A DNA stretch of 64,000 bases, taken from positions 1-64,000 of the IMG/VR virus record IMGVR_UViG_3300027566_000006; one strand, 5' to 3'. The DNA comes from a virus. Shown here piece after piece: positions 1-48,212 of this stretch (positions are counted from its first letter, which is position 1; each line of letters starts with the position of its first letter). The notes under the pieces were generated by a model, which was not told where the DNA came from, searched no databases, and saw only the letters and a program-made list of their open reading frames with translations. A program made the position numbers and the translations under genes.

Positions 1-849
1 AACTTGATACATAAAATTACCTCCTCTCTAAATCTTATAAACCCCAATCTTTAGGCATCTATTTTTTAACCAAATGCGCCTTTGCTCATGATTTTAATAT
101 TAACAAAAACACCAAATTGCTTTATCACATTTATTACAGACAATACCGACTACATCATGCATTTCCCACAAATTAAATTTAGAATGATCTATTGTCGCAT
201 ATTGCCCTTCATCTTCAGTAATATTAGCTTCTAACCCTGTTTCTTCATCAATAGTATTAAACTCCATTTCATTACCACAGTCACATGTAATTTTTATAAT
301 ACTCACTCTCCTTCCTATCTTAATACCACAGGTGTCTTACCCTCATCAATTTCTTGAATCCCTTTCAACTTACCTAAATAATAAGCAAGCGTAATCATTC
401 TCATTATCCTACTACTTTTAGTTTGATGTGATAATTTATCTAAGTAGGGGTTACTCAGTTCTTCTTCTGTAAAACTGTATCTATCTTCTTTTGCGTGTTT
501 TAATGTTCTGTCGTAATGTCGTTTTAGTTTTTCATCGTTCCAGTTATGCAAAAGATCACCTCTTTAATTTTCAATTGGGTTTAACGCTTTAATAACTTTA
601 TTATGTAATTTCTTTGTCATTGCAGATGTTTGAGATTCTGTTGCTACATGAAACATGCACATATTTATTGATTCTCTAATTTTCTCAAACTTTTCAGCTT
701 CTTTACCAAGAGTATAACCTTGTTTATTTGCTTGTTCTTCTAAAGAATCGCCCATAACACCATAACTAAATCCTACATTATTACTCATACAATTTATCTT
801 CCTTATTATTTTATATTTTTGAATGAAATACAGTATTGAATTTAACTAT

Positions 850-1242
850 TTAATCAATAGTCTTAATATCAACAGGAATCCACATTTTAGGATTATAATT
901 CAATGTATATTGATAATTGCTGACATTTTTATACTGCTTTTGCTCAACAACATAGGTAACATTGTCACTAAGACCTATAAAATGTTTTTGGTAAAGTCCA
1001 TTTGCATCTTCTACAGTAACTTCAAGTTGATGGTCTGTGTTGTCTGAGTAAATAGACATCTTTCCTGTCATTTGAAAAAGCACATCTCCTTGGATACAAT
1101 TAATTACTGTTAATTGGCGAACAACATTAAAATTATCAGCTTCTTTAGAAAGGTTAGATGATACTCTTTCTGCTTGTGTGCAACCAGCTAGAGATGTTAA
1201 TAAAACAATACATATAATTAATAGAGATATTTTTTTCTTCAT
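850..1242 (-). CDS. Phage lipoprotein
   Basis: Signal peptide with lipobox LAG-C. Confidence 0.7.
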   Translation of the reverse strand: MKKKISLLIICIVLLTSLAGCTQAERVSSNLSKEADNFNVVRQLTVINCIQGDVLFQMTGKMSIYSDNTDHQLEVTVEDANGLYQKHFIGLSDNVTYVVEQKQYKNVSNYQYTLNYNPKMWIPVDIKTID

Positions 1243-1262
1243 TAATAATTTCCTTCTTTCAT

Positions 1263-1760
1263 TTATATATTTTTATTTCTCTCTTCCATACACTCATTAA
1301 CCACATTTGCTACCGCTATCGCCATCTTCCCTTTAAATATAGCATCTTGCTTCAATTCATTGCTTACCTTATCAAATAATCCACCATTATTACTAATAAG
1401 TGTTCTGGCAATTTTATGTGAAAATCCTTCTCTTATTGCTAACTTAAATTCATCTTTAGAAATTGCTTCATCAAAACTATCTGCAATGATTTTTCTTAAC
1501 TCAGTTGATCTACTTTCAACTACATTGTTAACAAGTTTGGTCAATGGACTGCTATACCCACTTAGACAATCTTGAATTGCTTTTTGCATTGATGCCTGTA
1601 GAACCTGAAGAATATCTCTTTCTAAATAAATTGGTTCATGTTTTTTATCAACTTTTTCATTAACTGATTTAATTTCTTCTATCAGTTTTTTATTTTCTTG
1701 CTGAGTTTTTATAATTAAATTATATAATTCATCTAATGTTTTTTGTTCTTTACTATTCAT
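1263..1760 (-). CDS. Hypothetical helical phage protein
   Basis: 165-aa ORF with RBS. Confidence 0.6.
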   Translation of the reverse strand: MNSKEQKTLDELYNLIIKTQQENKKLIEEIKSVNEKVDKKHEPIYLERDILQVLQASMQKAIQDCLSGYSSPLTKLVNNVVESRSTELRKIIADSFDEAISKDEFKLAIREGFSHKIARTLISNNGGLFDKVSNELKQDAIFKGKMAIAVANVVNECMEERNKNI

Positions 1761-4700
1761 ATTTTACTCCTTTATATTTTTATATTTTAATCAAACACAA
1801 TTTTCATGATGATTTTTAAAACGGAAATGCATTATGATGTATCCCATATTCATCAATCAAATTCATAAATGCTTCTGCATCATAAGCCATTGATTGATAT
1901 AAGATTTCTCTTTGTTTATTTTCCGCTATCATAGAATTCATTGCTATTTCTGCTTGTAATAACTGCATCTTAAAATATAAGAGTTGTTGTAATTTATATG
2001 TATCGTCTGTCATATTATCTACCTTTCTTCTACAACATTATATTTATCTTTTATTCTTCTATATTCAAACAATCCGACATCTGCCAATGGAGTATTACAT
2101 TCCTTACAATAAATCCAATAACAAGTACGATCATAATCCATATAACTTACTGAATAGCTTTCTTTATGTTCACATTTAATAAATTTTAATCCAGCTCCAC
2201 ACTTAGAACAATAATTATCTCCATGCACTACTTCTTTTCCACATTCACAATAATATCTTCCATATGATAATTTTGCTGTTTTAGTTTGACTATGTATTAC
2301 ATTAAATAAATTATTATTTGTTGTTAATTGCTCAATCTTACCTACTTGCATAAGTTACTCCTTTCTTAAAAGTTAACACCAAAGAGAAATTTGGAAGCAA
2401 TATTTTAACACCAAGTATCATGATCATCACATGACCAATCATTATATTCTTGATTCCTATCTCTCTGTTTATTATTTTTTGCCTGTTCATATTTTTCTTT
2501 ATGTAATTTAATAAATTCAATTGCATCTCGTTTTGTTTTACCTTTAAATCCAATTTGATAATATTCATTTAATAAATCTATTGCATACCATTGATTATCA
2601 GTTATCTCGCTCATATATATTCCTTTCTTATTTCATTACTAAACTAACTGTTTATTCATTTTTATTTTAATAGTTTTTCAAAATATTCATTTGTAGTTTC
2701 ATCTTCTCTATTTACTTTGATTATCATGTCAAGATATTCATTACAATCTTTACAAAAATATTTACTAACATCATTTTTAAGGGTCGACAATGCATGAACA
2801 TATCCTAATTTAAATACATTATAAAACTGATCCGATGGATACATTTTATTAAATAATTTACTTATTTCTTGATTAAGTGGATTTGCTTGACGTTTCTTTT
2901 CCATAATTTCTTCAATCATATTTAAGTATTCACTATCCATTATAAACTAGTTCCTCCTTTCAAATAACGTGATAAATCGTAGTTTTCATTTCAATATATT
3001 AACAAAATATGAATACATCATTAAGATCCCAAAAACTAAAACACCTATACAACAAAGCGTATCGAATTTACTAATTGTATCGGTTGGGAAACTAACACAC
3101 TTCATACCACTATAAGGTATGAAATCAGGATGTTGAGCATTAATTTCACATCTATCTAAATATGCTTTATAACTCCAATAAGGATAAGTTTTTATAGCAC
3201 AAGCAAAAAATAAGACGGTAAATATTGTTTTCATAACTTTATAATCTCCTTTCTAAATGAATTGTTAAATTGATCCTAAGTCTTTTTTAATCTGATCTGC
3301 GATAATTTGATCTTCAAGATAAAATAAATCTGTACTTTTCCAACCAGATTTTGTGGCTATTTTAAAAAGCAATTGACATAATCTTAGATCAGGTTGTTTG
3401 CACCACAATTCTTTTAAATTATTAAGCATCGGTTCAATTCTATTTTTGTCTCTCATGTTATTTTTACCTCATATTTATTTTATACTTTTAATGCAATTAA
3501 GTCAATAGGTTTTATTTCATGTTAAAAGGTTTATTTTGAAATGAATTACCATTTTAATTTTTGTCCGCACTTAAAACAAAAACTTATTTTTCCTATACCA
3601 TGAATATCAGTTTTACAAACAGGACAATGCGCTTTACCATAATCAAATATATCAATGTTTATAGGTGTTTGTTTTTCAAGTGATTCTATTGCCTTTTCAA
3701 ATACTTCGTTTAATGCTCCCCATGAACTTTCTGCATAACTTTTCAATTCCTCAATTGCTTCTTTTGAGTCCATAAAATATCTCCTCTCTAATAATGTGAT
3801 CAATCGATTCTTTGGTTTAAAGTTAAAGCCCTATATAATGGGTTTCTTCATATTGGCTTTAACATTCATCTTCCATAATATAACGATGATCTGGATTATT
3901 TCTATCTAACAAAACTTTCCCGTTTTCAACTTTAGGTTTAATTATTATATCTTCATTCAAATAAGTTTTAATTACTTCATTAAGTTCTTCTTGGTTAAAT
4001 TCAAAATCATCATAATATAAAGGTAATTTGCTTCTTTTGCCTCTAATAAATGTTTCATCTATTCTTGATATAAAATCATTCCCATTACATTGTTCACATG
4101 GATATATGTAATAATGTTCGATTTTAGGGTTATTGCTTCTATGAATAACTCTGACGTTATGCTTTAAACATATATGATCTAACCCCTTATCTATTTGTTG
4201 TTTTTCAGTTATATTTATTAGTTTACAATCATTGCAATTTGTCAAGTAATTACCTCCTAAATCATGGCCAATGTTATCTTTGGAAGCGATTTTAATATAT
4301 TGGACTAAAAGACATTGCTTCAATTAAATATCCTTCAAATTCCTCAATAATTTCATCAATATTTAAAATCGAACCGTTTTGTAAATACATTTTTGTTTCT
4401 ATTTCATTATCTTTTAAATTATGAAATTCATTTAATAGTATTTTTATACTATTAATATAACTATCTATAGATCCTTGTGAAACTTTCATAATTATCTCCT
4501 TTCTAAAGGTTAACTGCAAATCACCCATTTATAATAATATTTTATAACGATTAATTAGTTCTTGTCGGACATCCCACATTTTATTGCAAGTCTCACACCA
4601 AGTAATTACTTTACGTTTTGCTCTGTATGAAGAATGAGTTTTACAACCATTAGCTAAAATTATAAGTGATTCTATAATTTCTTTATTTTGCACATATTCA

Positions 4701-7700
4701 TCTATGCGTGTTTGAATTTCATCTTCTGTTGCGTTATCTGAAACTTCTATTTCTTCATAATTATCTCTATTATTTGTATCCCAATAATATTTAATATACA
4801 TTATCTACTCCTTTCATTACCAAATCGCAGTTTTGTGTTGTTTTTAGACTTTAAGAATCCCATTATATCGGGTTTTAAAATTCACTCGATATATTTTCAA
4901 TCCAACATTTATAGCAAATTTTCATATCTTTTAAGTTCTTAGGGAAAGGAAATATGCGACCTTTATGATAAACATCTCTTGTTGAATTTCCACATAAATC
5001 ACATTTTACGTATTCTATTTTACTAGCACTGAACGATGGTTCAAATTCAACATAAACTTCAAATTCTTTTTCACATTTTTCACATTCCCAATCTAATTTA
5101 TTATCGTCACTTAAACCATCATATAATGCATCTGACATATCATTTTCTTTACCACAATACGGGCAATCAACAGTATTCATATATTTTCTCCTTTCATATT
5201 AATACCAAATTGGACTTTTATTCACTTAATGGTTCACCAAAAGCTTTATTTAATTCTTCTTCATTAATTGTCTGATCATCATTTACAAAAGTACAATCTA
5301 AAACCGTATGAAAATACTCATCACCTGTAACTCCACAGCCATTCCATTGATAACCTGATTTATAAAAATCACAATCATAACATTTCATATCTCTTATTCC
5401 TTCCATTTTTATATTAATTTTTTAGAAACATTATTATATTGGCATTTCTATACCCCTACCACTAATATAATAGTAATTTCTTATACCATATGGGGGTATA
5501 CGTTAATTGAATATTTCGGTTATTTGCGGATATTGCAAATCGCCGTAGTTTTTAGCAGCATTTTTATTTTTCTATTTCAATTAGATTATTAATAGAATCA
5601 CAACTATCTATAATATGTTGAATATAAATATCTGTATTTTCCTTTATATTTTGATTCAAATTCTGATACTCTAAAAATCCTTTAAAACTTTCTGCTTCAT
5701 TCTTAATCCACTTTATTTCATCATATATTTTTTGAATTGTATAATTATTTGTAATTACTACTTGTTCCATATAATATCCCTCTTTCCTAATTACAAAATC
5801 CATCAACCAAACATTTAAAAGTAGCATATAACTCTTCCAAACTTTCAAAATCAGTATTAATATTATTTCCGTTAGCAAAAATATCATATATATTTGCTTC
5901 TATTGTTGTATCGTATCCTTTACTAATCATCCACTCAGTCAATTTATTAAATAGATTTTTAATATATAACTTTTCTCCAACCATTCCATTTCTAAATTCA
6001 TATGCAGTTTCGATGCTAACTGAATATGTTTTATCTTTCTTATTATAAGTTATATCAATATTATTCAGAGTATACAGACTTGCTTCACTACTATTGCTTC
6101 GATCATCACTAGATTTAATTCCCCAAATAAATTCATATGTATCTTCATATTCTTGGTTACTTTTATTAATCTGATTTTGATACCATAATTTCTTTAATTT
6201 TTGTAACATAAATAGTCCTTTCTTTTTCTATGTATTATTTGTTTGCTTCGTATCTTTTATGATTAATTGTCTTAAATGCCAACCTAGTAAAATACCCAAC
6301 ATTAAGATACAACTAAATTCTAACCACCACATTTCATGCATGTTTATCACCTCACTATATAATGCGTATTATGGTATTGTGGAATAGGGGTTAAGCGTAA
6401 ATTTAGATAGAATAAATCATTATCTAATCAAACTTTGGTTATGAATTTACATCTCCGTATTTATTATTTTTAGATAAAATACGTCTATATTTACTTTTAA
6501 TATGATCCTCTAATTCTTGTCCTAAAGTCTTAATTATGCCATCCATTAAGTCATCTACTGCTTCTTTTGCTTTTGATTTTAAAGCGTTTGTTACTTCAAA
6601 AGTTTGCGAATATTCTCTAGCGAATTCTAATGCTTCTGCTCTTAATAAATCTTTAATTGTACTATCAATCCAGAGTCCTTTAATTTCCTTCATAACTGCT
6701 TCACTTAATACTTGTTTTTTTAAATCATCACCCATTGCTCCAATAAATTCTTGAGCCATCTTTTGTTTAACAATTTCTAAAATATCCGTATTTTCCATTA
6801 TAATATTCCTTCTTTCTTATATTTTTTTATTTTAATATTGTATCCAAAGGTAAGATTGATGTTGTTTTTATAATATTAAGCATGGATATCCATTAGGATG
6901 AGATTCTTCTGCCTCAATATGAATAATCCACTCATTACCACTAATGCCTGGAAGTCTTTGTCCTTCTTTCATTTGTTTTACTTCTTCAATTATTTCAAAC
7001 ATCCAAAGTTTATCTGTTTCGTAGAAATCTTCTGTATAATATTTACCACTTTCTTTGAAATATGTAAGTTTTATTTTATACACACTTTTCTCCTTTCTAA
7101 GTTGTTACCAATTTCGTATTTGATGCAAAAATGGATGCCTATATATTGGGATTTATGGCATACCTATTTTGAATTTTTTAATATAAATCCTTAGATAAGG
7201 TTTTTAATAATTCTTTTACTTCGTCAATTTCTGATAATCCTTGAATCGAATCTAGTATATCTTTTATTTCATTAACTCTTGTTTCTATATTATCTAATAC
7301 ACCATTCATATCAACACTTAATACATAAGTAGAAATATTATTATTCTTATCAAGCTCATCACTAAAATATGTATTATTATTTAATTTATCTCTATACACT
7401 CAATCTTTCTCCTTTCCAAATAAAATCAGATATTTATATTATTTTTAGTTCACTTAATTTCTTCTCTATAGCAATGCTTAGTTCGGTTCTACAGTTTAAA
7501 CAAGTATCATCAAATCCATATTCTTCAGAATGATCTCCTGGTAATGTAGGAATTTTAACATAAAGGGAACTCCGTGTTTTAAATCCAGCGTCATCCTCTC
7601 CAAATTCTTGACCACATATATCACATTTCCATCTATATATTGTTGCCATTAACAATCTCCTTTCCACTCATAATAAATTTAGGCTTTTATAATGATTTAT

Positions 7701-8213
7701 ATCCCATAGGTTTTAAGTCTTCAATTATTTCTTCATAATAACTTTTATCTTTTTCATATTCGTTTTTAATCTGATTTATTTTATCTTTGTATTTGATTAC
7801 TCTTTCATCTTCTTCCCATGAAATAGGTTGCCAATTTCCTGATGCAGTATAACCAGTAAAACTAACTTCCCCTTCGCCACTTATATATGACCTTCTTAAA
7901 TAACCCTGACCATTAAACCACATATAATAAGCAACTCCATTACTTATTTCTCTAACTTTTTTATCTGGATTTTCTATTAACCATCCAACCGCTTCTAATA
8001 CATTCATTAATTTTATCCTCCTTTTTTATTTTTACGGCTCCCAAACAAACGGTATATAATCATCTGGTTTAAGCACAGGCCATGTACTACTATCATTTCT
8101 CATTTGACTCTGTAAAAACTTTTCAATCTTTTTACCCCAGTATTCATCCACACTATCACAAATTACATATTCACTATAATCATCTCGATCAAAATTACTC
8201 GTAGCTATTATTT

Positions 8214-8594
8214 TCATATTCTCACCTCACTTTTATTTCTCTTTTCACATTCATCCATAGCTTCTTTTAATGTTTTAAAACAATTTTCTTCTTTAAAATA
8301 ATTCCCCGATTCACCCCAAGGAAAATAATTTATTTCCATACCTTTTTTAGTAATTTCAATGTCTATTCTTCTAACTTTACCTGTAGCATAATCATTTTGT
8401 GCTACCCTCCAACATTCAGGTTCATATTTAACTTTATAACCATCACCATAACATTCAGGGCATTCATATTCATTATTATTAAGACTTATTTGTTTCTTCC
8501 CATTACAAACCAGACAAATTTCATGAATTGCATTTGTATTTTGCCAAATTACAAATACTCTTTCACCTATTGCTAATTTTGTTTTTATATCCAT
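8214..8594 (-). CDS. Zinc-finger protein with DnaJ-like CxxCxG repeats
   Basis: CLVCNG and CPECYG motifs; N-terminus resembles ORF 9221..9481. Confidence 0.55.
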   Translation of the reverse strand: MDIKTKLAIGERVFVIWQNTNAIHEICLVCNGKKQISLNNNEYECPECYGDGYKVKYEPECWRVAQNDYATGKVRRIDIEITKKGMEINYFPWGESGNYFKEENCFKTLKEAMDECEKRNKSEVRI

Positions 8595-10331
8595 ATTAAA
8601 CTCCTTTCTCTAAATTTGATCCAATCAACTCTTTCATGCAAACCTATTCCCTGCATCAATCTTAGGTGGTTTTGATAAGTCACCATAAACAATATCGTCC
8701 TTTATTGTCTCTCTACAATTACCGCATATATGAACATCATTCCCACTTTCTATTTCTTCAAGTACACTTAGTCTTGAATTCATACTTTCGCACCATTGGC
8801 ATTTTAATTTCTTTGGTATACATTCTCTTATACAACCAGTTCTTTCCCTACAACTTCTATTATCAAATGCTGTCATAGGAGATGGAGTACAACCTGGAAC
8901 TACCAATGATCCTTTAGATTTATATTGCATATTTACTCCTTTCATTATCGAACAGTTCTTCTATTCTGACTTTACAAACCTCATCCACTTAATACTATCT
9001 TTATGATAATATTCGGATACTCCATCGTTCTCAATGTAATAACCTATTAAATTACATACCTCATCCATCACTGGTTCGATAAAATCAACTAATGTCCCTT
9101 CATGTTCAAAATCAAAACAAATTAATATATTCTCGTAGTTCATTTCATCAAACATTTCTTTAATTTTCATATTTACTCCTTTCTTTAACTCTGAACCTAT
9201 CCAACATTTCCTAATAATTTTTAATCATTTAAATGTAATTCTGCTTCATATTTTGTCACATAAAGTTTCTCCGCAAAAAGATAACGTGGATTATTCAAAT
9301 TATAACTTTCAGAATTTTTACTTATAAAAATTTCCTTTACTAAACCCCTATGTACTTTCTTTATCTCTTTATTTGGCAACCTGCTATTACAACAGGAACA
9401 AATCTCACCATATTCTGTTTCTTCCTCTATAAACCACGCAGTATCTCCAATATTAAATTTTGTTTTGTATCCTTCATTCATTATTATTTAATCCTCCCAT
9501 TCATCATCTTCATCATATTCATCTTTATATATTTCCTGTTTACTCAATTCAATCAACTGATCTAACAACAATCGTGTCAATCTCTTGTTAAAAATGTATT
9601 CATTGTATGCTCCACAACCATAATCAACATGTAATTGAAAACGATTTCCCTGTGATTGTTTTACCTTCTCAATAATATTAAACAGTCCACTACCCTTTAA
9701 ATCCGAGAACCAAACCCCTCTACCATACTGACCAGCAATAATAGAATATGTATAGAGTTTCTTAACTCCTCCGTCATGGATATCTTGACCATGTACGCTA
9801 ACTCTACCAAACCAATAATTAATAAACCGTTCCTTAAAGTTATTAAAGATGTATTGGATAACTTCTACTCTATCTTTCCAACTGGCTTTTAGAAATGCTT
9901 TGATTACTTTAAATACCATATTATCTCCTTTCATATTTATATTATTATTTTAATACCATACGGAATAAATTGCAACCATTATTTATTAATTAACTGCATA
10001 ATTGCTTTATATGTATTAGATCCATTAGTAGTGCTATCAACACTAAACGCTCCGTATTTCTTTTGATTATATCCGCTTTTCATTTCTTTAATTAACTCTT
10101 TAAAATTACCCATTCCATAAAACAGCAAATAAAATGGAAACAAAATAGTTGCTAATATTTTAGTTGGTAGATTTATAAACTTATGAATTAATATTTCATT
10201 TCCATTATAATAATACTCATATTTATCACACCATCTCATCTGCCTATATTTAAATAATTTATTATGTTGTTTCTTAGTTAATTTGAATTGTTTATATCCT
10301 TTGTCTAAGGGGTTGGTGTAAATGTAATTAC

Positions 10332-11099
10332 TCATGCTATCTCCTCTCGTATTTTTACCGCCTTCTTTTTATATTTTCTTTTTAGTTTATTTTCTTCTAA
10401 ATATTTTTTATAATCTTGTTCTATCCATTTATATATTTTTTCTAAAACTTCTTCGCTGTGACTAGAAAAATCATTTTTATAATACCAATCTTCCAGTTTA
10501 GAAGCTCTTTTACTACTATTACAATCCTTACATGACGGTACACAATTATCTAATCCATTACTACCTTCATGATCTACATGTTCTCTATGTAAAGTTTCAT
10601 TATATTTAATTAAATGTTCTTCTAATGTCGTTCCACAATAAGCACAAGAATAATTAAAGTATTTTAAACAGGTTTGCCATTCATTATCAGATATTTTATG
10701 AGTCTTATGTAAACTTCTGTAATTATTATATTCTTTTAACTTATCACGATTATTTGCTTCCCATTCCCTTCTCCCACCATTTTCTTTATATTTAGTATTA
10801 CTATTTCTAAGTCTTTCTCTTCTTCCTTCTTTTGTTTCTTTTAGTTTTTTGTCTGCTATTGCGACACGATCCCTATGGCTACGTCTCCAAGCTAAACTTT
10901 TTTCTAAACTACATTTTTTACATTCAGGATATAAACCATCACTTTTATTTTTCTTATTTTTGTAAAAATATTCTTCTGTACAAGGGAACCAAAAATTCTC
11001 TTCTGGAAATATTTTATGATGATAAGCACATTTCTTATGTAATTCTCCATTTATAATTTTATGATAATCTTCATAGGGATATTTATCTTGATTTCTAAT
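10332..11099 (-). CDS. HNH endonuclease (255 aa) with probable ATT start codon; absent from the ORF track
   Basis: Own translation: open 768-nt frame with CAYCG...HREHVDH...NCVPSCKDCNSSK and no Met; AAGGAGG lies 9 nt upstream of ATT; the stop overlaps the next ATG. Confidence 0.85.
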   Translation of the reverse strand: MRNQDKYPYEDYHKIINGELHKKCAYHHKIFPEENFWFPCTEEYFYKNKKNKSDGLYPECKKCSLEKSLAWRRSHRDRVAIADKKLKETKEGRRERLRNSNTKYKENGGRREWEANNRDKLKEYNNYRSLHKTHKISDNEWQTCLKYFNYSCAYCGTTLEEHLIKYNETLHREHVDHEGSNGLDNCVPSCKDCNSSKRASKLEDWYYKNDFSSHSEEVLEKIYKWIEQDYKKYLEENKLKRKYKKKAVKIREEIA

Positions 11100-12529
11100 G
11101 TTTAATTACCTCCTTTAAATATTAACTTCAAACGAATAATTGATTACATTAATCACAATTCCTAGTCTTTTTCTTCTTTTTGCTCATAGTCTGTTTAATC
11201 AATCTAGCAACATGCGTACCTTTATACATATTCATTAATTCAGATTTCTCAGCATCGTCTAATTGCTTACATTCTTCATCAAACCACTCAAGCATCTGGT
11301 TAAGATTATTAAATCCAAGTATTAAATTATTATGTAAATAAATAACATTATCTTTAGGAATCGAAATAGTTTCATTCCCAATACTATTTTCAACGGCATG
11401 TAATATAGGATATACTCTTTCGTTTAATAAATCATCCACTGTTTTGTCTCCACCTATCGGTACAGTATAAGGGTAATCTTCGAATATTTTCTCATCTGCT
11501 TTGAGATAATTTGGAGTGGTAATTGATAATTTTATACCTTCCACTTTTTCAATTTGTTTAATTAATTCTTTTAGGTTATTCACTTTTGACCTCCTCTTAT
11601 GTATTTATTTATTTTTCTATTTTATTATACCCTTAATTCAATTTTAATTTTAATTGTTCGACTTCTAGTATTTCTCTTGTCTTGCAGAGTTCTTCAATTT
11701 CAATTTCTACTTCTTCCAATCTGACGTTAACAATCTTCAACTTTTCTTCTCTAGATAGTTTCTCCCACATTATGTATTACTCTCTCCTTTCTTTATTTTT
11801 ATATTGATAGCAAATCAATATTTGAAGTTAATTTATTATGATAAATTCAAATCCATTCTTCAAGGGAGAAGAATTCATTGTTTTACTATAAATATAATTT
11901 ATTCTTCCTAAATCATCACGAAAAAACATCTTTTCATCGTGAACCTCAAAACAGTAATATTCTCTACCAACCGTTACGCCTTTTTCAGTAGGACTGTTGC
12001 CACTTATACATTTTATTCTTTCCATAATTCTTTCCTTTCGTTACAGAATGATTCTTTGGTATTAATCCTCTTTCCACACATCTCTTGTTCTCAAATACTC
12101 TAGTATATCTTCTGTTGGTATATTGCGAAGAAATGTTTGCCAATATTTATCACCATAATAATATTTAGTGTATTCTTCCATAGTCGTGAATGTTTTATTG
12201 TTTCGTTTCCCTATTATAATTGCTTCTTTATTTTTCATAAATTTTTACTCCTTTTAACACAAATTAAGTAATTGGTATTAATTATAATGTTGATATATGT
12301 TCCCAATTATAAATATGCATATCATGAAACATTTTGATTATAAATTCATATTCTTTGGTTTCTTGAATATATCTTTCTGCCTCTTCTTTCCCATAAATCA
12401 TATAAGGTTTGAACCATAATCTTTCTTTTAATTCTAATGCTCTTTCTGAGTACCGAATTAGAGTTTTATAAATACCTTCTTGATTTTCTTTCAATATATT
12501 ATCACTCATTACAAAACCTCTATTCTATG

Positions 12530-12724
12530 TTAATTAATTTCTTCTATTGAATTAATTTGTGGTTCACCTGCATCTACTGAAACTAGTTTAAGTTCCATCT
12601 CTATATATTTATCAATAGCCTTTTCTGTAGCTTCATCTTCATCTTTTGCATATACGGTTATATTTCTTTCAATATATCTAGTAACATGTGACCCAACATT
12701 AACTTTATACTTCATAATTTTCAA
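12530..12724 (-). CDS. Small hypothetical protein, paralog of 26758..26943
   Basis: 46/61 residues identical from MKYKV onward. Confidence 0.8.
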   Translation of the reverse strand: MKIMKYKVNVGSHVTRYIERNITVYAKDEDEATEKAIDKYIEMELKLVSVDAGEPQINSIEEIN

Positions 12725-15507: not shown

Positions 15508-15903
15508 TTACAAATTACTTTGAATTAACCCTTTAAGAACGTCAATAGTATCAATAGTAATGTCTTTACAATCTTGATTCATAGTGTAACCATTAAACTT
15601 AATATCGTCTTTTTTAAGTTCAGATTGGAGTTGGTCTAACATCTTATATATGTCATTATCTGGCAATTTGCGTTTTTTGTCAAGAACAGAATTTCCATCA
15701 TCATCCTTTAATAACTCATCAAGTGTCATTTGATTATAATCGGCAATAATTTGTAATCTGGCAATATTAACAATATCTAATGTATCCTTTTTCTTCATAT
15801 CTAAAAGCCAATCACCGGGAAGCCCTATTGCTTCTCCCCATTCTTTATAATTCTTACATCCAGAACGTTCAAATAACATGTTGACTTTTTCACCGAAATT
15901 CAT
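15508..15903 (-). CDS. XRE-like HTH transcriptional regulator
   Basis: N-terminal FGEKV...IADYNQMTLDELL HTH pattern; downstream of the YopR-like gene, as yopS is in SPbeta. Confidence 0.6.
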   Translation of the reverse strand: MNFGEKVNMLFERSGCKNYKEWGEAIGLPGDWLLDMKKKDTLDIVNIARLQIIADYNQMTLDELLKDDDGNSVLDKKRKLPDNDIYKMLDQLQSELKKDDIKFNGYTMNQDCKDITIDTIDVLKGLIQSNL

Positions 15904-15931
15904 TTATTACACCTCACTTATTATTTATTGC

Positions 15932-22260: not shown

Positions 22261-22337
22261 TTACCACACTCTCCTTTTATGTATTATACAATTATTACTA
22301 AATAGAGTATAGCATATATATTATGTTTTGTCTATAT

Positions 22338-38343: not shown

Positions 38344-38965
38344 ACTTATTTGATCCAAATGATTGTTTGACGTTGTTATTTACCATCCACTAATATGCAT
38401 TCCTTCTGTACTGTATATTCTTACATATTTATATTGTTGTTCTAAACAACTGTTATTGTTTATGTAATCAATTGCTTCATCCTCTGTTTTAAATTCCTCT
38501 GATACCTGTTGAAAGTCTCCACCATTATCTTCTTTAACTCTTACGTTATACCCCGTTGCGGTTCTGTTTGCTTTGCTAGTATAGCTCTCTATATGTTTTC
38601 CTTCTGGTAATCCATCAAAAGGCATACTTAAACACGGTTGAATTGCTTTATTTCTACGTTTATTAAACTTCATTGCTTTAGCATAACTCATTTGTTTGCC
38701 CCTTCCCTGTTATTGATCCAAATACCTATTTGGTTTAAATATATGCTTCCCACCATACCATATCATAATTAAATCCACCAACTATAGTTTCACATCTTTG
38801 ACAATAAAACTTATTATCTTTAAAACTTAAATAATCTCTTTGTGTCCAATAAGCATCCCAACAATGTTCATTTTCCATAAGGTAATCTATTAATTCTTGT
38901 TTAGTTTGAAAATGTTCCCACATCATCATTTATCACTCCTTTAATTTATTATATCTTATAATATA

Positions 38966-38994: not shown

Positions 38995-39010
38995 CATGAT
39001 TTTTATACTT

Positions 39011-40046: not shown

Positions 40047-41970
40047 AAGTCTAATATATTCAATTTTATTTTAAACTTATATTACATTCTTGTTTATACT
40101 TGCCTTTTATCGTATTCTGCTTTAGTAATTTCTACATAAGTCATTAACTCATCTTTCTCTAAGGTAAATTCATCTAAACCTATTTCATTGACCATGATGA
40201 TTTTATTACCTTCTTCTTTGCCTCTATACACCCATCCGAATTCACATGAATCTTTGTTGATATCCATAAAATATTTATAAGGCATGATTCAACACTCCTT
40301 TTTATTTATTCTAAAGGCATATTATTAAAATGTCAACCATATTTATTTTTACCCTTTAATATCATATTTTTAACTTAGTTACATTCTTTACAAAAATAAC
40401 ATTCTTCGTTATCATGAATTTCAATAGTATAATCTTTATTTAAAATTAAATTATTTAAATCAATTTTTCTTCCACATTGGCTGCATTCAACATAAAAACT
40501 ATCTAACATTTTAAATCTCCTTCAATCTCCTTTATACTCTATTATACTATGTTTTTCCAAACTCAAAATCGTTACAAAATGCCTGATTTATTTTGTTATG
40601 CTTTTAGTAATTCAATAATATAGTCTACTGCTCCGCTAAAATCATCATATCTGAAATATTTAGAACTACTCCAAAATTTATCCGAATATTGAAAAGCACT
40701 TGATTCATGTTTCACACTACTATAAACAACAATTTCATCACTGTTTCTATTCTCACTAAAAGCAATTGTTTGAATTTTTGCTTCATCGTTATAATTGCAA
40801 ACTCTATACCCTTGCTCTCTGCAATTTTCAAACATTTCAAAACTGGACTTAATATTTTGTGTGCGGGTATCCTCCATTAGCATATTTTTAATCTTTTCAG
40901 CATATTCAATCTTTCCTAATTCTAACATTTCAAATCCCTTCCTTTCATCCTTATAAAATATTAGTTTTATCCAATGTCCATTAATTCTGCCGTAATATTT
41001 AATGTTTTTCCGTTTATATCATACTGTGTAAACACTGTCCCGCCATCTGCAACATATCCTAATTCGTCTTCTCCTCTTAGAATTATGTTTAGGAATGTGT
41101 TATCCTCAACACCTTTTAAAAACTCTTTCAGTTCTCCAACTGTTGTAATATTAACATTACATTCTTTGTATAATTCTTTCCGGTCTGCCTTTTTAGTTGT
41201 TTTTCTTTCCTCTTTAAATTCTTCTATTGAATATGGTAACATTTCAATACACTTCCTTTCAATTCGTTATAGAATCTGAATTTCAAACAAATATTTATTA
41301 TGCTGTCAATACTGGCATTTCTGTGATTTTAACTTTTAAGGTGTATTTATCAAAATCATGTGTCCCGCAAATTACTTTAAATAACTTTGTAGTTACCGTC
41401 ACATCCTCTGAATACTTAACTGTTTTTTCTTCTAAATATTTTACTTTTATTTCTTCTGCTTTTTTAGACCACTTGTTCATTAAAGTTTCTACAATGGCCT
41501 TTTTTAATTTTTGATTAGATGGAATTTTATTGTAGACTAAAATTGTTGAGTATTTAAATTCTAACTCCACATATTGAATGGTTCTACTCATTTTCTACCC
41601 TTCCTTTCTTGATAAAAAAGTTATTTGGTTTTGATGTATTAATTATACCATACTCACAACATGATATGCAAGCACATTCTTTATTTTATTCTTTTGTTTA
41701 CGCTACCCTCTTGAGGTAACTTTGTCTCGCTGTTATATGCCTATTCATTCTTGTTTTCTTTATCTCTAGAGCGTTTTTCATTGATAAGTAATTAACCATA
41801 AAGCAACTAAATACAATTAGTATCCATCCGGCTGCAAAGTATTTAATGACTAGGGAAGAGACTGTTATTATATCATTCATTGTTATACCTCCTTTAGTTT
41901 ATTTTTTATATTATAGTTATAAGGTTTTTGAATTAAGCAGAACCTTTTAAACTGCTGTTATTGTTTTAGT

Positions 41971-43539
41971 TTACATTGCCGAACTATTTATATTTAACCT
42001 GTTCATCTCTTTTAATATCCTTTTAAATGCTTCTTGATAATCTGTATCGCATGCTTTAGTACCCCATGCCATTTTACCAGTTATGTGATTCTTAATTATT
42101 GTTATTGCCTGTTCAAAGGTTTTATACTCGGCTGATTCTTTAATCATTGGGAATTTATAACCTTGTTGTAATACTTCTTTTAATGCCTTACCTGTTATAA
42201 TAGTTTCCCAATTTCCCATATTGATAAAACGCTGATCATCATCAAAATGCGGTCTGTTATAGAAGTTAGAGATAGTATATATTTTATTCTCAATTATATT
42301 ATGGTTTTCTATTGCTGTTACTTTACGGTTACATTTATAAATAATTGTCGGTTCTGTATCATTTCCAGTATATACTTCATCCTCCCAAAACAATTCTGAT
42401 CCTGTTAATAGTTCGGAGATTTTATGATATTTCTTGCTGTTATTATCCATTTTTAAGTAAGTTACTGTATATAGAGTATTTTCTTCAACATCTTCTGGAG
42501 TGATATTTTTAACTTCTGCCAACATACTGTTATTGTAATTTTCAAGTTCTTCTGCTTCTTTTCTTCTTCTCTGTTCTCCTTTTTTTATATTGCAGTTCTC
42601 ATCAAAGTATAATGTATTGCTGTCAAAACTATGGCAATTAAAGCTTAACGGTGTTATACCTTCTTTTGTTTCTCCTGCTGATACCCACCAACCTGAAGAA
42701 CTTTCGATTATTCTTTCTGCTAAATGTATTAAATCAAGTGATGAGCCTCTTCCATAATTACATGCTGCATCATAAGCATAATCATCTGAATAATACCCGT
42801 CTTTTACTCCTTTGAATATTTGACCTGATAAAATAGCTTTCCAAACATGAGCAATAGTCCATTTTTTTGGTGTTTTAATTGGTTTGATTTCAACGAATGG
42901 AGAAAAGGTATTAATTCCTTTTTGTGAACCTTTGTCTATCTCTAAAGTTTCAATATTCAATGAATCGGTTATTATTGCGTTATGAAATGCTTTTACGGTT
43001 TCAATTTCGCCGATGTTCCACAATTCTGTTAATACAGATTTATGGTCATCCCATACATTTTTACGGATTGAATAACGATTACATTCTTTACCAATTTTTA
43101 ATGCATTGGTAAGGTCGATTAATACTGCACTATCAGCATAAAAATGAATATATGCGTTAATATCTGCAAAGTAGCCGGAAACTCTGCTATTCAATTCTAT
43201 ATCGCTTGATTTAAAGATTTCTGTACTACCTACAGTATTGTAAGAGGGAAAATAAGATTGTTCTGGTTTGGTTGTTGTGGTCTGGTTGCTATTATCTGTT
43301 ATTACTAATTCTTGATCCTGGTTAATTTCTCCGCTTAATTCTTGAGCCAATTTTAAAGTTTTTTCTGATTGTTTGGCATACCACAATTCTTTTTTCCATG
43401 AGAATCTAAATCCTGCATCTTTTAGAATGTTTTTAATGGTGTTATTTGGTTTCTCATCTTTAGGCCAATATAATTCCACTCCGTTTAATTCCTCATTGAT
43501 TGCCATTTTAATACTGTTATTGTCTGACATTGCCAACAC
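41971..43539 (-). CDS. Large early protein with an N-terminal domain typical of phage/plasmid polyvalent proteins
   Basis: NEELNGVELY..KP..LKDAGFRFS..K.LWYAK; remainder unknown. Confidence 0.5.
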   Translation of the reverse strand: MLAMSDNNSIKMAINEELNGVELYWPKDEKPNNTIKNILKDAGFRFSWKKELWYAKQSEKTLKLAQELSGEINQDQELVITDNSNQTTTTKPEQSYFPSYNTVGSTEIFKSSDIELNSRVSGYFADINAYIHFYADSAVLIDLTNALKIGKECNRYSIRKNVWDDHKSVLTELWNIGEIETVKAFHNAIITDSLNIETLEIDKGSQKGINTFSPFVEIKPIKTPKKWTIAHVWKAILSGQIFKGVKDGYYSDDYAYDAACNYGRGSSLDLIHLAERIIESSSGWWVSAGETKEGITPLSFNCHSFDSNTLYFDENCNIKKGEQRRRKEAEELENYNNSMLAEVKNITPEDVEENTLYTVTYLKMDNNSKKYHKISELLTGSELFWEDEVYTGNDTEPTIIYKCNRKVTAIENHNIIENKIYTISNFYNRPHFDDDQRFINMGNWETIITGKALKEVLQQGYKFPMIKESAEYKTFEQAITIIKNHITGKMAWGTKACDTDYQEAFKRILKEMNRLNINSSAM

Positions 43540-44053
43540 TCCTTTTATTTTTATTAATTAAACTCTTATTTTGGGATACTACTTAGAGCATCCCAACTAT
43601 AAGAATTCACTTAATTATTTTCGTAAAATTCTATAGTCTCAGCTATTGCAACTTGATACTCTTCAATGCTGTTATACTGATTTACCGTTATATCACCTTC
43701 GCAGTATGTGTATATATTATATGCGTTGTTATCGGCTAATACTGCTCTATATCCGTCAACAAAGAGACAACTGGTGTTATAATGTTTATTTACTATGGAT
43801 TGGAATGTGTAACAATCTCCGCATATATGGCCTCCATAATATAGAATAGAATTATCTTCTTTAATTCTGGAATGTAAGCATATATCAATTATTTTATTAC
43901 CTGTTAAGGGATAGTCTGGAATGATTTCATATTTATTAAAATTGATTCCCTTATAGTTATTATCACTTAGAATAGTTTGAAATTGTTCTGCTGTTACCTT
44001 AATTATATTTTCCATTTTATAACACTCCTTTTTTCTTTAAACTTTATATTATA

Positions 44054-44082
44054 ATTATAATGGTTTAGTTTCATGTTGTCAA
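44054..44082 (-). promoter_or_regulatory. Consensus sigmaA promoter
   Basis: TTGACA-17-TATAAT; shares TTGACAACATGAAA with the promoter at 45465-45494. Confidence 0.8.
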
Positions 44083-47000
44083 CATTATTTTCTTAGCCTG
44101 TAGGCTCAAGATTATATTTTTCACACCATGAGCAAAATACATCAATATTAGCTTTTACTCCTTGCTGCTGTCTTACTGCTTGATATTGGTTATAATCTGC
44201 GTACCAACATCCTGCTACCTTATAAGCCTTTACCCCGTTAATGTGTCTTGTTTTCTTTTCCATTATTTCCAACTCCTTTTTTGTTTTTTATTTTTATTTA
44301 AGCTTAACACTTACAGAGGTTAACACTGGCTGTTATTATATTTTGTTTGTGTTATGTGTTAACCTTTAAAATGTTAATTCGTTATTTGGTTACATACCAT
44401 GCCACAAATTTATTTTCTGTTCCATCTTGACTACTCCAAGGCGTATAATGTGCCTTATGATTTTTTCTAATATAGGTATTTAGATTTTCATTATTGCAAA
44501 ATATTTTTGCTTGTTCTTCAGTATCAAAAAACTTAAATGTTGACTTATATCTGATGCTCATAATATAAACATACTCCTTTTTATTTTTTGTTCTGTACTA
44601 ATTTGTTTTAATGGCAGGAATATTATATAAAACAATTTTCCCACTATCATTATATATATTATTGCAAACGCTCATTTTAAAATATTTTTTACCTTTTTTG
44701 ATTCCTTCTATTACAAAGGATAATCCTTTTTCCTCCGCTTCTTTTAGTTCTAATTCCTCGAAAGATGTATTGTTGCTCCATCCATCTTTTATGAATTTAT
44801 TTGTTATTTGTTCCACTGTTTTAAACATTATTGTTATACCTCCTTCCATTTTTTCACTTTGAATCAAATTTGCTATTGGTTTTGTTATTTGCATATTTCG
44901 CATATGCAATGTTGTGATCCACCTGTAAATATTCCTTTGTATACATCTGATTCAAGAATAAGACTCTTATAATTTCTTCTTGAATCTCCTGTATACATTA
45001 CTTTAATTATGCCAGAAACATAATTCCGTAAAGTATACCCAGTAGCAAGGATTTTATTATCATCCATGCATCTAATTTGATATTTAAAGAAGTTTACCTT
45101 CTCACATACCAAATTTTGATTACCTAAGTATTTTTCGAGTTCTCCTGCTTTTAAAGTTTTCATTCCTATCCACTCCATTCTGTTATTATTTTTATTTCCT
45201 TTTAATACCCTCAATTATGCCCAAATTGGGCATACTGGAAGGTACTGCTGTTATACTAAATAAATTTTAATTCCTAAATATATTTGTGAATCAATTCTAA
45301 TTTTCTCAATTTCCCGTTCCTTGTATTCTTTTGGTATTTTGTGCCGTAAAATGTAATTGCAGACCATCAACATGCAATTCTATATTTTCTTTACCATCAA
45401 GAGTTTTTAATAAGTCATCAAATTTCATTCTGCTCCACTCCTTTTTTAATTCTGTTATTACCTAATTCTAACAGATTTACTTTCATGTTGTCAATAGTAT
45501 TTTATGCTTACAATTATATCTTTATTCTGTTATTTAGTGATAAAATCAATCTTTCATCACAAGTATAGTTTAACTGCTGTTATACCGCTTGAGGGTAAAG
45601 TTTGCAGTATTCATCAAACAATTTCTCTGTTTCCCTTTTTGCATCTTTTAGCAGTTTAAACCTTCCAATAATATCTTGAGATTCTTTTTCCGTATTTTCT
45701 ACTATGCCATAATAAAAAGGTCTTTTGATTGAATCGTGACTGTATTCTTTTTCCATTTCTTGATATACAACTACTCTAATGGTTTCTAATGTATTGCAGG
45801 GATCACGGGCTTCAAAAGTATAACGGGGAGAATCGTCTAACCAGTCATAACCTTTTGTCCATTTTTTAGTCATATGATTTTCACTCCTTAATTATTTTAT
45901 TAATCTGGTTATTGCTGATATGCACAAATAACCTTGTCACCTAAATCAATGGCAAATCCTTTTTTACTCGGTAAAGGTTTGATCATATCAATAAATTTAG
46001 ACTTTGTGTTATACTCAATTCCTGCTGCATCGATAAAATTATCATTGAAATAATCCCAGGTTTTATAATTCTTATTGATAGTCTGCTCTAAGTAACATAC
46101 TAGAGCTTTGTTGGCTGGTAAAGTGTATAGCGCATGGTCTGTTATAGTTCCCTGCTCGTCAATAGACTTGATAATTGATTTTTGGTTGTTCATTATGTTT
46201 CCTTCTTTCTTAATAATTATTTTTAGTTTGTTATACTGCGTATGAATATCTTCTACCTTCTTCATCTATTAGATAAATATATTTGACTGAAGTTATTTTG
46301 TATTCTGCTCCTTTTGTTTTATGCCATTCAAATGTTCGGTCAACATGAATTATATATTCATTGTTATAAATTAGCATGTATTCAAATGTATCATACTCAG
46401 TTTTTTCTATTTCTAATAATTTCTCAAGGTCTTTTATTTTGATTTTTCCTTTTATTGATTCGGGCATAGATTTTTTATTGATATACATTATGTTTTTACC
46501 TCCTTCCCTTATTACTATTCTGTTATTATTAATTCCTCTATAGAATATTAAAATCTGTTATATCTTATTTATAGTTTGATTTTAACACTCTAACAAAAAT
46601 TAATTGCTTGCTGTTATTGTGCGCTTGATCCGCTAACATGAGCATAATTAGTTAAAAACCATTCTGTATATTTTTCAGCTTTAAACCATTTCGCTAGTTT
46701 ATAATAACTTAATTCTCCTATTCCTGGTATTGGTTGCGGTTTTATTAATGCTTTTTTAGGTATCCAGCAAGTATATTTTGATAATTCCATGCTTTTAGAT
46801 TCCATGTTATAACCTTGTAATTGTATAGCCTTATCTGTTATTGCCGTTATACGTCCATGAAACATTCTACTAAATATTGCCGTCTCTGCTATTGCTCCAC
46901 CTAAAGAAATGCTGATTTCTTGATATTCTCTAAAATCCATTATTGTTATTCCTCCTCTATAAATTCAACTATGTGCAAACCTTTATTCCAATTGTATTTA

Positions 47001-48212
47001 CATATTTGACCACTAAAAATGTTATTGTCTGCATCAAGAAATAAGGTAATGTTATTAACATCTTTTTTCATTCCTTCCCGATATGGTTTGATATATGTTC
47101 TACAGATTAAGTGGGGAATGGTTCCTGCTACATTGTATAGGTCTGCAAACTGTCCACCTGGAGTAAATACGCTAGTTCTGATTTCTTCAATATTTACCAT
47201 ATTTATCCTCCTTTATATTTTTGTTTTACTACTAATAAGCCTTGACAAGTGGTGCTAATTGTTATTTGTTATTAGTACCACTTAATAAGAATTATTGTTA
47301 TTGATTTTTAGATGATATCCGACTGATATAGTTTTGAAAATCCAGTATTGATATTTTAGTCATTGGCTGAGATGATATTTTATTTTTAGCTTTATATACC
47401 TTTAAATTTGTTTCTCTGGTGTCAAACTTGTATTCGCCTATATGATACATTCCCCACCTATCAATGGTAGCTCCTGCTTGCTCTAGGATGGTATTAAGAT
47501 CATTAATATGTTTTAACCTTTGGATTTTTGTCAATGTTATCGACTCCCTTTATTTATTTTATGCCTCATTATATCATACTGGTAATATGATTGTAAAGAG
47601 TGGATATTTATTTTTATTAAATGATATACTGCTCGTGATAGGATAAGTCTGTTATATCATTTCTATTTTAATATCATTATGTTTTTCTTTATCTTTCATT
47701 ACATCAACTATAAAGTGCATATTTGGAGTAATAGTTTCATATTTTGTAGCATCTTCTATGTCGTCTACCATTTTGGGGAACACTTCTCGAACAATAAATT
47801 TTAAGTATTGATTTTCACATTTAATCACATACATATAATAACCTCCTTTTCACTTGATTCCAAACGGTTATTTTATGCTGAGTGCTAATTTATTTTTACA
47901 AATTTTAATATACTTGATTCAACCCAAGTTTTCAATTCTTTATCTGTTATAGTCTTTTCCCAAATAAAACTTTTAAAATCTGTACTATAACAATGTAATT
48001 GACAACGGCCTATGATCCATAGATTATCTTGTAATACTTCATATATTCCATTATAGCAATCAAATTGATTTTGAATAATTACATGATTTATTTTTATATT
48101 GTCTTTTTCAGTTACCAAAATATATTTTACATTATTTTTACCACAAAAGTCTGGTAGTATATCATTGTTATTGTTATTCATTTTTATTCCTCCAATTCAT
48201 TTTTTTAATCTG

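Follow-up and report, generated by a model that had tools for sequence, protein, structure and literature searches.

Gene-junction dyads with position-specific centres in the early arrays of SPbeta-like phages as candidate tyrosine-recombinase core sites

How phage genomes remain collinear in spite of the fast turnover of their accessory genes is an old question, which has been framed in terms of the modular theory and of 'linker' sequences. Among the closest described systems, MrpR of phage SPbeta adopts the integrase fold, has lost recombinase activity and binds the SPBRE element at ten early promoters (PMC10516654), SroF of phage phi3T clamps an asymmetric 24-26 bp box as a monomer (bioRxiv 10.1101/2025.11.27.690993), and host Xer proteins, which represent an alternative enzyme source for the sites discussed here, act in the dif modules of Acinetobacter (PMC6449649, PMC13141974). 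Xer-type sites, dif modules, SPBRE/MrpR, stoperators and PeSL cassettes are all known components. The present analysis concerns a short dyad found between the early genes of a groundwater phage, in a stretch of 64,000 nucleotides (the window) that corresponds to the first 64 kb of a 98,339-bp IMG/VR viral contig (IMGVR_UViG_3300027566_000006; CheckV completeness, 56%; 27% G+C). The source is a groundwater metagenome, and the phage is present in the source run and in one further groundwater run.

The phage is large and SPbeta-like. From 1 to 55 kb about 118 small genes are found, every one on the minus strand, and from 55 to 98 kb the plus strand carries a ParB-like gene, an Xer-like recombinase, homing endonucleases, an exonuclease, the terminase and the portal, that is, an SPbeta-like late arm. 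A MEME-like expectation-maximization (EM) motif search of the 70 nt upstream of all 118 minus-strand genes, in which no previously assigned coordinates were used, returned two motifs, namely the ribosome-binding site (RBS) and a dyad, the latter with a posterior above 0.5 at 55 of the 118 junctions. The quasi-palindrome that the initial annotation of the window had described at about 45 junctions is, thus, borne out by an unbiased search. Its gene-strand consensus is AYMAAA-N6-TTTKRT (18-bp core) with a weak extension to 28 bp (an 11-6-11 layout), and at the 47 positions initially listed the columns outside the original motif definition also carry information. With a position weight matrix (PWM) of the 18-bp core, 37 matches of at least 12 bits were found against 4.3 ± 2.2 in first-order Markov simulations, and 60 of at least 10 bits against 19.3. 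At a threshold of 9 bits, the region between 1 and 55 kb contains 73 matches, of which 59 are located between genes (11.1 kb in total) and 14 in coding DNA (approximately 44 kb), making matches in the early array about 17 times denser between genes than within them. Only four of the 25 matches in the late arm (55-98 kb) are intergenic, so that there is no enrichment in that region. The absence of clean copies from the lysogeny/agr block and from the ParB operon, also noted initially, was found again: at the junctions of the former (14.9-23.1 kb) there is no good site of at least 9 bits but only two weak or RBS-overlapping matches, and the PWM scan gave no dyad of at least 9 bits at those of the latter.

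Sites are given here by the coordinates of the 18-bp core, with no strand assigned and with the 6-bp centre read on the gene strand, as obtained from the PWM scan and from intergenic placement. Among the 47 positions of the initial list, which are higher by one than those used here, 41 score at least 9 bits, and 22941, 24107, 24399, 26365, 27596 and 34560 are weaker. Twelve sites had been overlooked, namely 2378-2395 (TTTCTC, 15.5 bits), 4515-4532 (GGGTGA), 6422-6439 (GTTTGA), 8947-8964 (GAACTG), 9195-9212 (TGTTGG, weak, 9.7 bits), 11809-11826 (TATTGA), 26739-26756 (TACTCA), 30293-30310 (TGGTTA), 32061-32078 (GGTGGA, 14.2 bits), 44863-44880 (AGCAAA), 50057-50074 (CCGAGA, 14.8 bits) and 52587-52604 (GAGGTA, 14.1 bits), the last of which is isolated in a gap poor in open reading frames (ORFs) at 52.0-53.1 kb. 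The array, initially placed at 70-47875, is indeed present but continues to 50,074. The lysogeny module is bordered by 14838-14855 (GTTATG), the first site downstream of it, and by 23177-23194 (TCCTGA, 15.5 bits), the first strong site upstream of the lysogeny/agr block.

The position of the dyad with respect to the genes is well defined. In about 40 of 57 sites it begins at −4 to +13 nt relative to the stop codon of the gene upstream, and it ends 16-34 nt ahead of the next start codon, so that the dyad and the RBS occupy the whole gap at a typical junction; most dyads lie 8-10 nt ahead of the RBS. The observation that the right arm may reach the upstream stop codon holds, with overlap at nine sites, including 2972-2989 (ACTACG), 7673-7690 (GCCTAA; stop of gene 7687-8007), 8620-8637 (GAGTTG; stop of gene 8634-8930) and 40953-40970 (CTAATA; stop of gene 40967-41242). 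Strong sigma-A-like promoters occur only every 3-5 kb or so, about a dozen dispersed ones feeding the array; most dyads have none within 60 nt, and where one is present the dyad sits upstream of the −35 element, which places most dyads inside operons. Examples of the latter arrangement are 27936-27953 (AGTCAA), followed by a sigma-A-like promoter with its −10 at 27900, 38354-38371 (CAATCA), followed by a strong one (−10 at 38320), 40574-40591 (CAGGCA), followed by a promoter-like site, and 45540-45557 (GATTGA), upstream of a strong promoter (−10 at 45470). A function of the dyad as a promoter element was considered and rejected, no association with sigma-A-like promoters being detected. The initial description of the genes as promoterless is supported at most motif junctions, which lack a sigma-A promoter of their own. 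The only pair of paralogues among the 168 genes (12530-12715 and 26758-26943, 75% identical) is also bounded by dyads, at which its homology stops, the distance from site to site being 228 bp in both copies. The first copy lies between 12511-12528 (TAGAGG, downstream boundary) and 12739-12756 (TGTAGA, upstream boundary), and the second between the already mentioned 26739-26756 and 26967-26984 (CTTTGA).

Close relatives of this phage are rare in the collections that were searched. No match was obtained by megablast of 24 kb against 50,697 phage records, and no relatives were found among genome contigs searched with a 577-aa protein or among viral contigs searched with a 284-aa protein. The sole IMG/VR relative is a 143-kb contig (G001) with 21 of the 168 proteins in common and an MrpR-like protein 54% identical to that of the window, which is too distant for fine mapping of breakpoints; it contains 26 junction copies of the dyad with the same flanks by PWM, and a de novo EM search on it did not recover the dyad as the top motif. 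The MrpR-like protein has 134 homologues in the protein collection, and by scanning JGI/ENA metagenome contigs with their alignment 79 loci (L numbers below) were obtained, mostly from digesters, fermenters and bioreactors by name. All of them encode an MrpR-like protein by construction of the search, and they cover approximately 10 kb on either side of its gene. In these loci the density of PWM matches of at least 11 bits is 0.88 per kb between genes and 0.107 per kb within them, and the context is that of the window, with the dyad followed after about 10 nt by the RBS. The same motif in the same context in 79 loci indicates that the dyad is a feature of a whole SPbeta-like clade, whose members carry mostly different accessory genes. 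In SPbeta itself the dyad is at best sparse (13 of 47 matches intergenic in 100 kb, an approximately 2.7-fold enrichment).

The most informative part of the dyad is its centre. The 57 centres of the window genome show no consensus and are all distinct, but particular centres recur between genomes: CTTATA in 12 loci, TCTTTA in nine, TAGACA in eight, TGTAGA in six and TCGGTA in five. A non-redundant set of 200 sites from 42 loci was obtained by removing sites that shared either 45-nt flank at 60% identity or more with a site already kept. In this set 68 pairs of sites have the same centre, whereas 500 shuffles that preserved the columns gave 15.7 ± 4.1 such pairs (at most 32) and hexamers from the flanks, used as controls, gave 12-30. 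Arm identity is 0.668 for the same-centre pairs and 0.667 for all pairs (0.564 and 0.57, respectively, at the degenerate arm positions). The arms of same-centre sites being no more alike than those of random pairs, the centre appears to be conserved by itself and not through recent descent of the whole site. The shared centres also keep their order along the genome, with 31 comparisons concordant and two discordant, the latter being one event seen twice. In particular, the series TCTTTA (14522-14539; 9 loci, 5 unrelated contexts), CTTATA (13621-13638; 12 loci, 7 unrelated contexts), TCGGTA (13339-13356; in L015, L078, L081 and L087) and TGTAGA (12739; in L024, L044 and L072-L074) recurs in part in L072, L074, L078, L081 and L088, and the series TACTCA (26739) and TATGTG (24777-24794) recurs in L081 with the same order and, for the second site, the same spacing. 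Further shared centres are TATTCG (11127-11144) in L015 and TATTGA (11809) in L048, both in the same order, ACTGTA (823-840) and GTTTGA (6422) in L048, the latter upstream of a homologue of gene 5787-6209, and GGACGG (31265-31282) in L071. This conservation is found among phages with hardly any array genes in common: beyond the lysogeny core, BLASTP (E<=0.01) retrieved no counterpart from the window genome for the array genes of L074, L078, L081 and L088, and only three, which are collinear, for those of L048. The recurrence of TATTGA in relatives was discounted as such, most of its copies lying inside the conserved MrpR coding sequence. As a separate observation, the centres are 43% G+C in a 27% G+C genome and often have T as the first and A as the last base.

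Comparison of related loci also allowed the ends of homology to be placed with respect to the dyads. In close pairs of loci an alignment breakpoint is present at 27 of 39 junctions with the motif and at 175 of 357 without it (odds ratio 2.3, p = 0.018, with some pseudo-replication). Dyads are found at both ends of a 1037-bp one-gene insertion (L071 compared with L070), of a 1396-bp insertion (L072 compared with L075) and of a gene replacement (L072 compared with L074), and in L076 two dyads enclose an 85-bp insert without an ORF at a place where L056 has a single dyad. In 20 non-redundant pairs of sites with only one related flank, identity is 0.81-1.00 through both arms and the centre; towards the unrelated flank it is back at baseline no more than 5 nt beyond the dyad. 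At the TGTAGA site of L072 an upstream flank as in L074 is joined to a downstream flank as in L073. In these alignments the breakpoints of gain, loss and replacement coincide with dyads above chance and are enriched there, but they are not confined to dyads, and homology ends at the outer edge of the dyad. With regard to the loci themselves, L055 and L056 are near-identical MrpR-like loci approximately 270 kb apart on one contig of 540,969 bp (Ga0209518_1000004, 1-14,885 and 265,913-286,881), reflecting either two related prophages in one host genome or an assembly join. In L056 a PWM match that directly follows the lysogeny module, at 13094-13111 (with homologues in L053, L055 and L076), belongs to a GC-containing terminator-like hairpin, AAACCCTT ... 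AAGGGTTT, with a genuine dyad 26 nt past it; a few of the matches are, therefore, coincidental.

The symmetry of the element bears on whether it is read as DNA or as RNA. The base frequencies of the two arms mirror each other (C 0.48 and G 0.58; A 0.32 and T 0.35), and in the relatives a symmetric TT at −5/−4 and RA at +21/+22, that is, 13-14 positions on either side of the centre and outside the scored core, bring the element to 28 bp in an 11-6-11 layout. A hairpin of the polycistronic mRNA, serving processing, stability or translational control of the next gene, would fit the fixed spacing to the RBS and the position of the site on the transcribed strand between cistrons. However, arm covariation is absent both in the window sites (standard pairs, 41 against 42.3 expected; next arm pair, 31 against 27.5) and in 89 independent sites from relatives, the paired cells being equal to expectation in both data sets, and the third arm pair is mismatched in about 40% of sites. 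Folding of ten sites gave only 0 to −4.1 kcal/mol with z-scores of about 0, no better than shuffles, and no Rfam family matches the dyad. With these results an RNA-level reading is close to refuted. Symmetric arms, no covariation and negligible hairpins together indicate a double-stranded DNA site for two equivalent protomers, and the dyad is predicted to be read by two protomers of one protein.

Two protomers on an 11-6-11 site are the standard arrangement for the Xer, Cre and Flp enzymes. The geometry of a recombinase core site, with inverted arms around a variable centre, which had been recognized from the beginning, is confirmed for a motif that is specific to junctions, and its 6-bp centre behaves like an overlap region in being conserved position by position between phages. 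The pattern as a whole suggests that the dyads may be fixed, individually 'addressed' crossover points for the swapping of genes between phages. In the mechanism that we favour, though with a confidence somewhat short of even, they would be tyrosine-recombinase core sites with heterospecific overlap regions, at which cassettes are exchanged between phages. Two protomers of the same protein, most probably a tyrosine recombinase, would occupy each dyad, each site offering two degenerate 11-bp arms (with a strong inner hexamer, AYMAAA, and a weak outer TT) around the 6-bp centre, which would be the overlap region in which strands are exchanged and would have to be identical in both partners. With all centres different within one genome, its own sites would not recombine with each other and the array would be stable. 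The equivalent junction of a co-resident related phage or prophage would instead present the same centre and permit a crossover, and two such crossovers would replace the genes between them with gene order kept. Such a process would parallel, in nature, the recombinase-mediated cassette exchange that is carried out with heterospecific lox sites, and would likewise be comparable to the Xer-dependent dif modules. More hesitantly still, one may extend this scheme to SPbeta-like phages of anaerobic habitats in general, which would possess a built-in means of orderly exchange, with slots bounded by core sites whose 6-bp 'addresses' are shared by the population. Recombinase binding, strand exchange in the centre and the identity of the enzyme are what we infer from sequence, and the bound protein may also have a second, regulatory role.

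As for the enzyme, the candidates would be a host Xer enzyme or the phage Xer-like product of 61129-62019 (plus strand, 296 aa; Pfam PF00589, 6.6e-34). The latter scores 165-177 bits against NCBIfam Xer models, all below the equivalog cut-offs, with XerA/C/D as the best matches. The statement that it is intact is supported by its complete catalytic motifs, the Arg-Lys-His-Arg-His-Tyr set being found with the motifs TGLRISE, GKGNKQR, HQLRH, LGH and IYTH. The YopR-like protein, which had been put forward beside it, is unlikely to be a recombinase. By alignment this MrpR/YopR/SroF-family protein (16318-17280, minus strand) lacks the His-x-x-Arg box and probably the first catalytic Arg; it has an integrase fold but is probably catalytically dead, and its characterized relatives bind asymmetric boxes as monomers. 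It matches PF22822 at 2.7e-11 (44.4 bits against a cut-off of 27) and, among structures, PDB 9rd5 at 3.5e-35 and 8a0a at 4.5e-20. The recently solved 9rd5 and 9rgl, deposited as 'core-binding domain-containing protein', are far closer to it than SPbeta MrpR (8a0a), and are probably the phi3T SroF of the 2025 preprint.

Several findings weigh against recombination at the dyads. Strong conservation extends over only 6 bp of each arm, a short stretch for a recombinase, and the gene of the candidate phage enzyme is in the late region, on the other strand and 11 kb away from the array. That the 57 centres all differ is not significant alone (chance would give about 1.6 identical pairs), centre sharing was measured only within about 13 kb of the MrpR-like gene, the 143-kb G001 has five centres in common with the window genome that are not collinear, and some flanks that are unrelated by ungapped comparison are homologous with indels (e.g. 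in L078 and L088). Breakpoints are common also at the junctions without a motif, as the counts given above show, and when both ends of 30 distinct indel or replacement events are considered, only 13 of these 60 boundaries have a dyad within 25 nt (random positions, 5.2 ± 2.3). No recombination product at dyad pairs was found in the contigs of the two runs, although contigs cannot show rare forms; the contig joints that were seen had sides of 20-27 nt, with one of 57 nt inside a gene, none being credible and none at a dyad pair. As an alternative, the dyads may be operators, or roadblock sites, of a dimeric regulator (e.g. a helix-turn-helix protein) that would bind between cistrons and silence or time the early operons, gene exchange being a passive by-product of a dispersed repeat. 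This explanation, doubtful but serious, is favoured by the dyad symmetry with 12 bp between half-site centres, which suits a dimer, by the confinement of the sites to the early-lytic arrays, with none in the lysogeny module, which must stay on in a lysogen, or in the late operon, and by the location of most sites inside operons shortly before the RBS. Precedents for it are the stoperators, which occupy short intergenic spaces (PMC9283540), and the PeSL regulatory cassettes, through which genes are shuffled (PMC2839356), and L5 stoperators and the CcpA/CodY roadblocks are analogues. However, an operator gives no reason for a consensus-free centre to be kept by position and order while arms and neighbouring genes differ, homologous recombination needs longer identity than sites with drifting arms provide, and no candidate regulator was found. 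A recombinase, instead, predicts arms that follow only a consensus, identical overlaps, and products that keep the centre with combined flanks; for this reason, and with modest confidence, the recombinase model is ranked first and the operator or roadblock second, the two being compatible.

A more specific form of regulation, improbable in our judgement, would have the dyads as operators of the MrpR/YopR/SroF-like master repressor encoded at 16318-17280, in a multiplied SPBRE-like silencing array similar to stoperators. A family member is encoded in every motif-bearing locus, though the loci were found that way, SPbeta MrpR binds its repeated element at early promoters (PMC10516654), often just upstream of an RBS, and an integrase fold would suit a site with the shape of a recombinase core. 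On the other side, SPBRE as derived from the SPbeta record is an asymmetric word of about 22 nt, often abutting the RBS, and SroF sits as a monomer on an asymmetric box (bioRxiv 10.1101/2025.11.27.690993), a binding mode that does not predict a fully symmetric dyad, whereas here the arms are equally and symmetrically conserved; in addition, most dyads are away from promoters and the conserved centres would be unexplained. A direct comparison in which the dyad was taken as an SPBRE-like sequence was rejected, no likeness being detected beyond AT-richness. By taking into account the asymmetric binding of the family and the lost catalytic residues, the MrpR-like protein is neither a good candidate for the binder nor a possible enzyme, and the dyads are probably not the boxes of the phage repressor. 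The initial annotation had opted for an integron-like system, in which an integrase of the IntI or Tn916 type, tolerant of mismatches in the core, would cut out promoterless cassettes one at a time as circles and return them to the array. Small genes singly flanked by sites and mostly without a promoter, the one paralogue pair whose homology ends at dyads 228 bp apart, and the ORF-less insert of L076 would agree with it, but its defining features are missing, which makes it very improbable. No integron integrase is present, the 61129 product scoring 92.4 bits against the integron-integrase model TIGR02249 (cut-off, 265) and 54 against NF011946 (cut-off, 435), there is no attC-type structure (18-28 bp sites instead of 57-141 bp) and no attI/Pc, the 168 genes include a single pair of paralogues, and no circle or deletion joints were found in the contigs of the two runs, although contigs drop rare forms. 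The addresses follow one another in a conserved order from phage to phage, contrary to what free shuffling would give, and the pattern points, instead of to cassette shuffling within one array, to reciprocal exchange between same-centre sites of different phages.

The remaining sites of the array can be placed as follows. In the part downstream of the lysogeny block on the gene strand they are 69-86 (GGCGCA, 16.9 bits), 1790-1807 (ATTGTG), 3799-3816 (GAATCG, 15.4 bits), 4819-4836 (CTGCGA, 15.7 bits), 5204-5221 (GTCCAA), 6843-6860 (CTTACC), 7107-7124 (TACGAA, 15.1 bits), 7420-7437 (ATCTGA), 12043-12060 (GAATCA) and 12259-12276 (TACTTA). Upstream of the block they are 23383-23400 (TTCTGG), 28268-28285 (GATTCG), 28489-28506 (GTTTCA), 28911-28928 (GAGAGA, 16.1 bits), 29120-29137 (GACGGA, 15.3 bits), 29465-29482 (TGTGAA, 15.1 bits), 30622-30639 (AGCATA), 38717-38734 (TAGGTA, 15.1 bits), 41269-41286 (TTCAGA), 41612-41629 (TAACTT) and 47859-47876 (TAACCG). 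A strand-polarized signal separate from the dyad is the word CTGTTAT (ATAACAG on the gene strand), with 39 copies on the plus strand and none on the minus strand (shuffles, 13.9 ± 3.8). Of these, 31 lie within 8 kb (41730-49634), many inside coding sequence and several between a dyad and the next RBS, and further copies are at 14509, 20134, 29784, 30285, 38450, 38707, 52416 and 53684. In the ORF-poor gap at 10.3-11.1 kb a 139-bp stretch (10509-10646) is 71% identical to 13926-14063, within the 284-aa gene 13638-14492, and looks like a decayed partial duplicate.

The lysogeny block at 15-23 kb encodes a YopQ-like DndB protein, the MrpR/YopR-family protein, AgrB, a helix-turn-helix (HTH)-MazF fusion and a DUF5317 protein. 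The YopQ-like DndB-domain protein (17282-18640, minus strand; PF14072) is the conserved partner of the MrpR-like gene, with 41-84% identity in the relatives, and three small conserved genes on the same strand (orf129, orf131 and orf90; 15140-16321), with homologues in L015, L048, L074, L078 and L081, complete the dyad-free lysogeny core. Beside the YopQ/MrpR-like pair the dyad-free block contains the HTH-MazF (PemK) fusion (20292-21152), the AgrB homologue (19225-19962) and the DUF5317 protein (21469-22901), whose genes are kept in several relatives (L078 and L088). In the late arm, genes for GIY-YIG and other homing endonucleases are scattered beside the Xer-like recombinase, before the terminase (62189-63028 in the window; 11154-12362 in L094), and an 856-aa late protein showed no likeness to YonO detectable by BLASTP. 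At the end of the contig, past the window, a 73-bp segment is found in perfect tandem (98193-98265 and 98267-98339), as an assembly end artefact or a real repeat array.

A limited literature search found no paper on junction dyads with position-specific centres in phage early regions. What the present analysis adds to the known components is that the joints between exchangeable genes become visible as discrete candidate protein-binding sites, with consensus-free centres that stay the same at each position in phages with hardly a neighbouring gene in common. If it is true that a recombinase reads the centres as overlap regions, the arrays would represent a new class of viral mobile-gene organization, related to dif modules and to engineered cassette exchange, and would provide a ready set of orthogonal recombination sites; if centres do serve as addresses, co-resident phages would swap the contents of their slots without scrambling gene order. 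If the dyads are operators instead, silencing sites would be packed inside these operons with unusual density, and the conservation of the centres would have to be explained all the same.

Among the systems mentioned at the beginning, the Xer/dif sites and the pdif modules of Acinetobacter plasmids (PMC6449649, PMC13141974) share with the dyads the 28-bp layout with arms of about 11 bp and a 6-bp centre. They are also numerous on each replicon and delimit small modules of accessory genes, which differ between related replicons with the breakpoints at the sites, and in both cases a recombinase of the Xer family with the R-K-H-R-H-Y residues is available. However, Xer/dif has distinct XerC and XerD arms in alternating orientation around the modules, whereas the arms of the dyad are mirror-identical. 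The arm sequence of B. subtilis-type dif is also unlike that of the dyad. The pdif modules move freely, and here the sites are instead found at nearly every junction of a phage early operon, directly before the RBS, with centres unique to each position and collinear between genomes; the enzyme may be encoded by the phage. The SPBRE/SroF boxes (PMC10516654; bioRxiv 10.1101/2025.11.27.690993) belong to the same phage lineage, a member of the MrpR family being encoded in the window too, and are likewise early-region repeats often upstream of an RBS, but they are asymmetric, bound by a monomer, present in about ten copies per genome and located at promoters, while the dyads are symmetric, of another sequence, present in about 55 copies and mostly inside operons.

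The stoperators of L5-type cluster A mycobacteriophages (PMC9283540) resemble the dyads in that dozens of sites are located in short intergenic spaces of temperate phage operons. They are 13 bp long, asymmetric, orientation-dependent and bound by a monomer, whereas the core and the flanks of the dyad are symmetric. We know of no role of the stoperator sequence as positional addresses. The PeSL cassettes of T4-type phages (PMC2839356, PMC4122927) also consist of a short motif that flanks small non-essential genes in hyperplastic regions, with indels and replacements that end at the motif. They are made of a sigma-70 promoter and a terminator stem-loop, recombine by homology and give mini-circles, whereas in the present arrays there is no promoter at most sites and no stable stem-loop, the arms are degenerate and only the 6-bp centre is common to the exchange partners. 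Finally, in the attC/IntI system of integrons small genes, mostly without promoters, are likewise lined up in one direction, and an imperfect palindrome follows each of them. However, attC sites are imperfect inverted repeats (R''-L''/L'-R') of 57-141 bp whose single strands fold, whereas the dyads are of 18-28 bp and do not fold, and attI/Pc lies beside the integrase at the head of the integron array, whereas here the recombinase is 11 kb off on the other strand and promoters are dispersed. Cassette order is shuffled in integrons and conserved in the dyad arrays.

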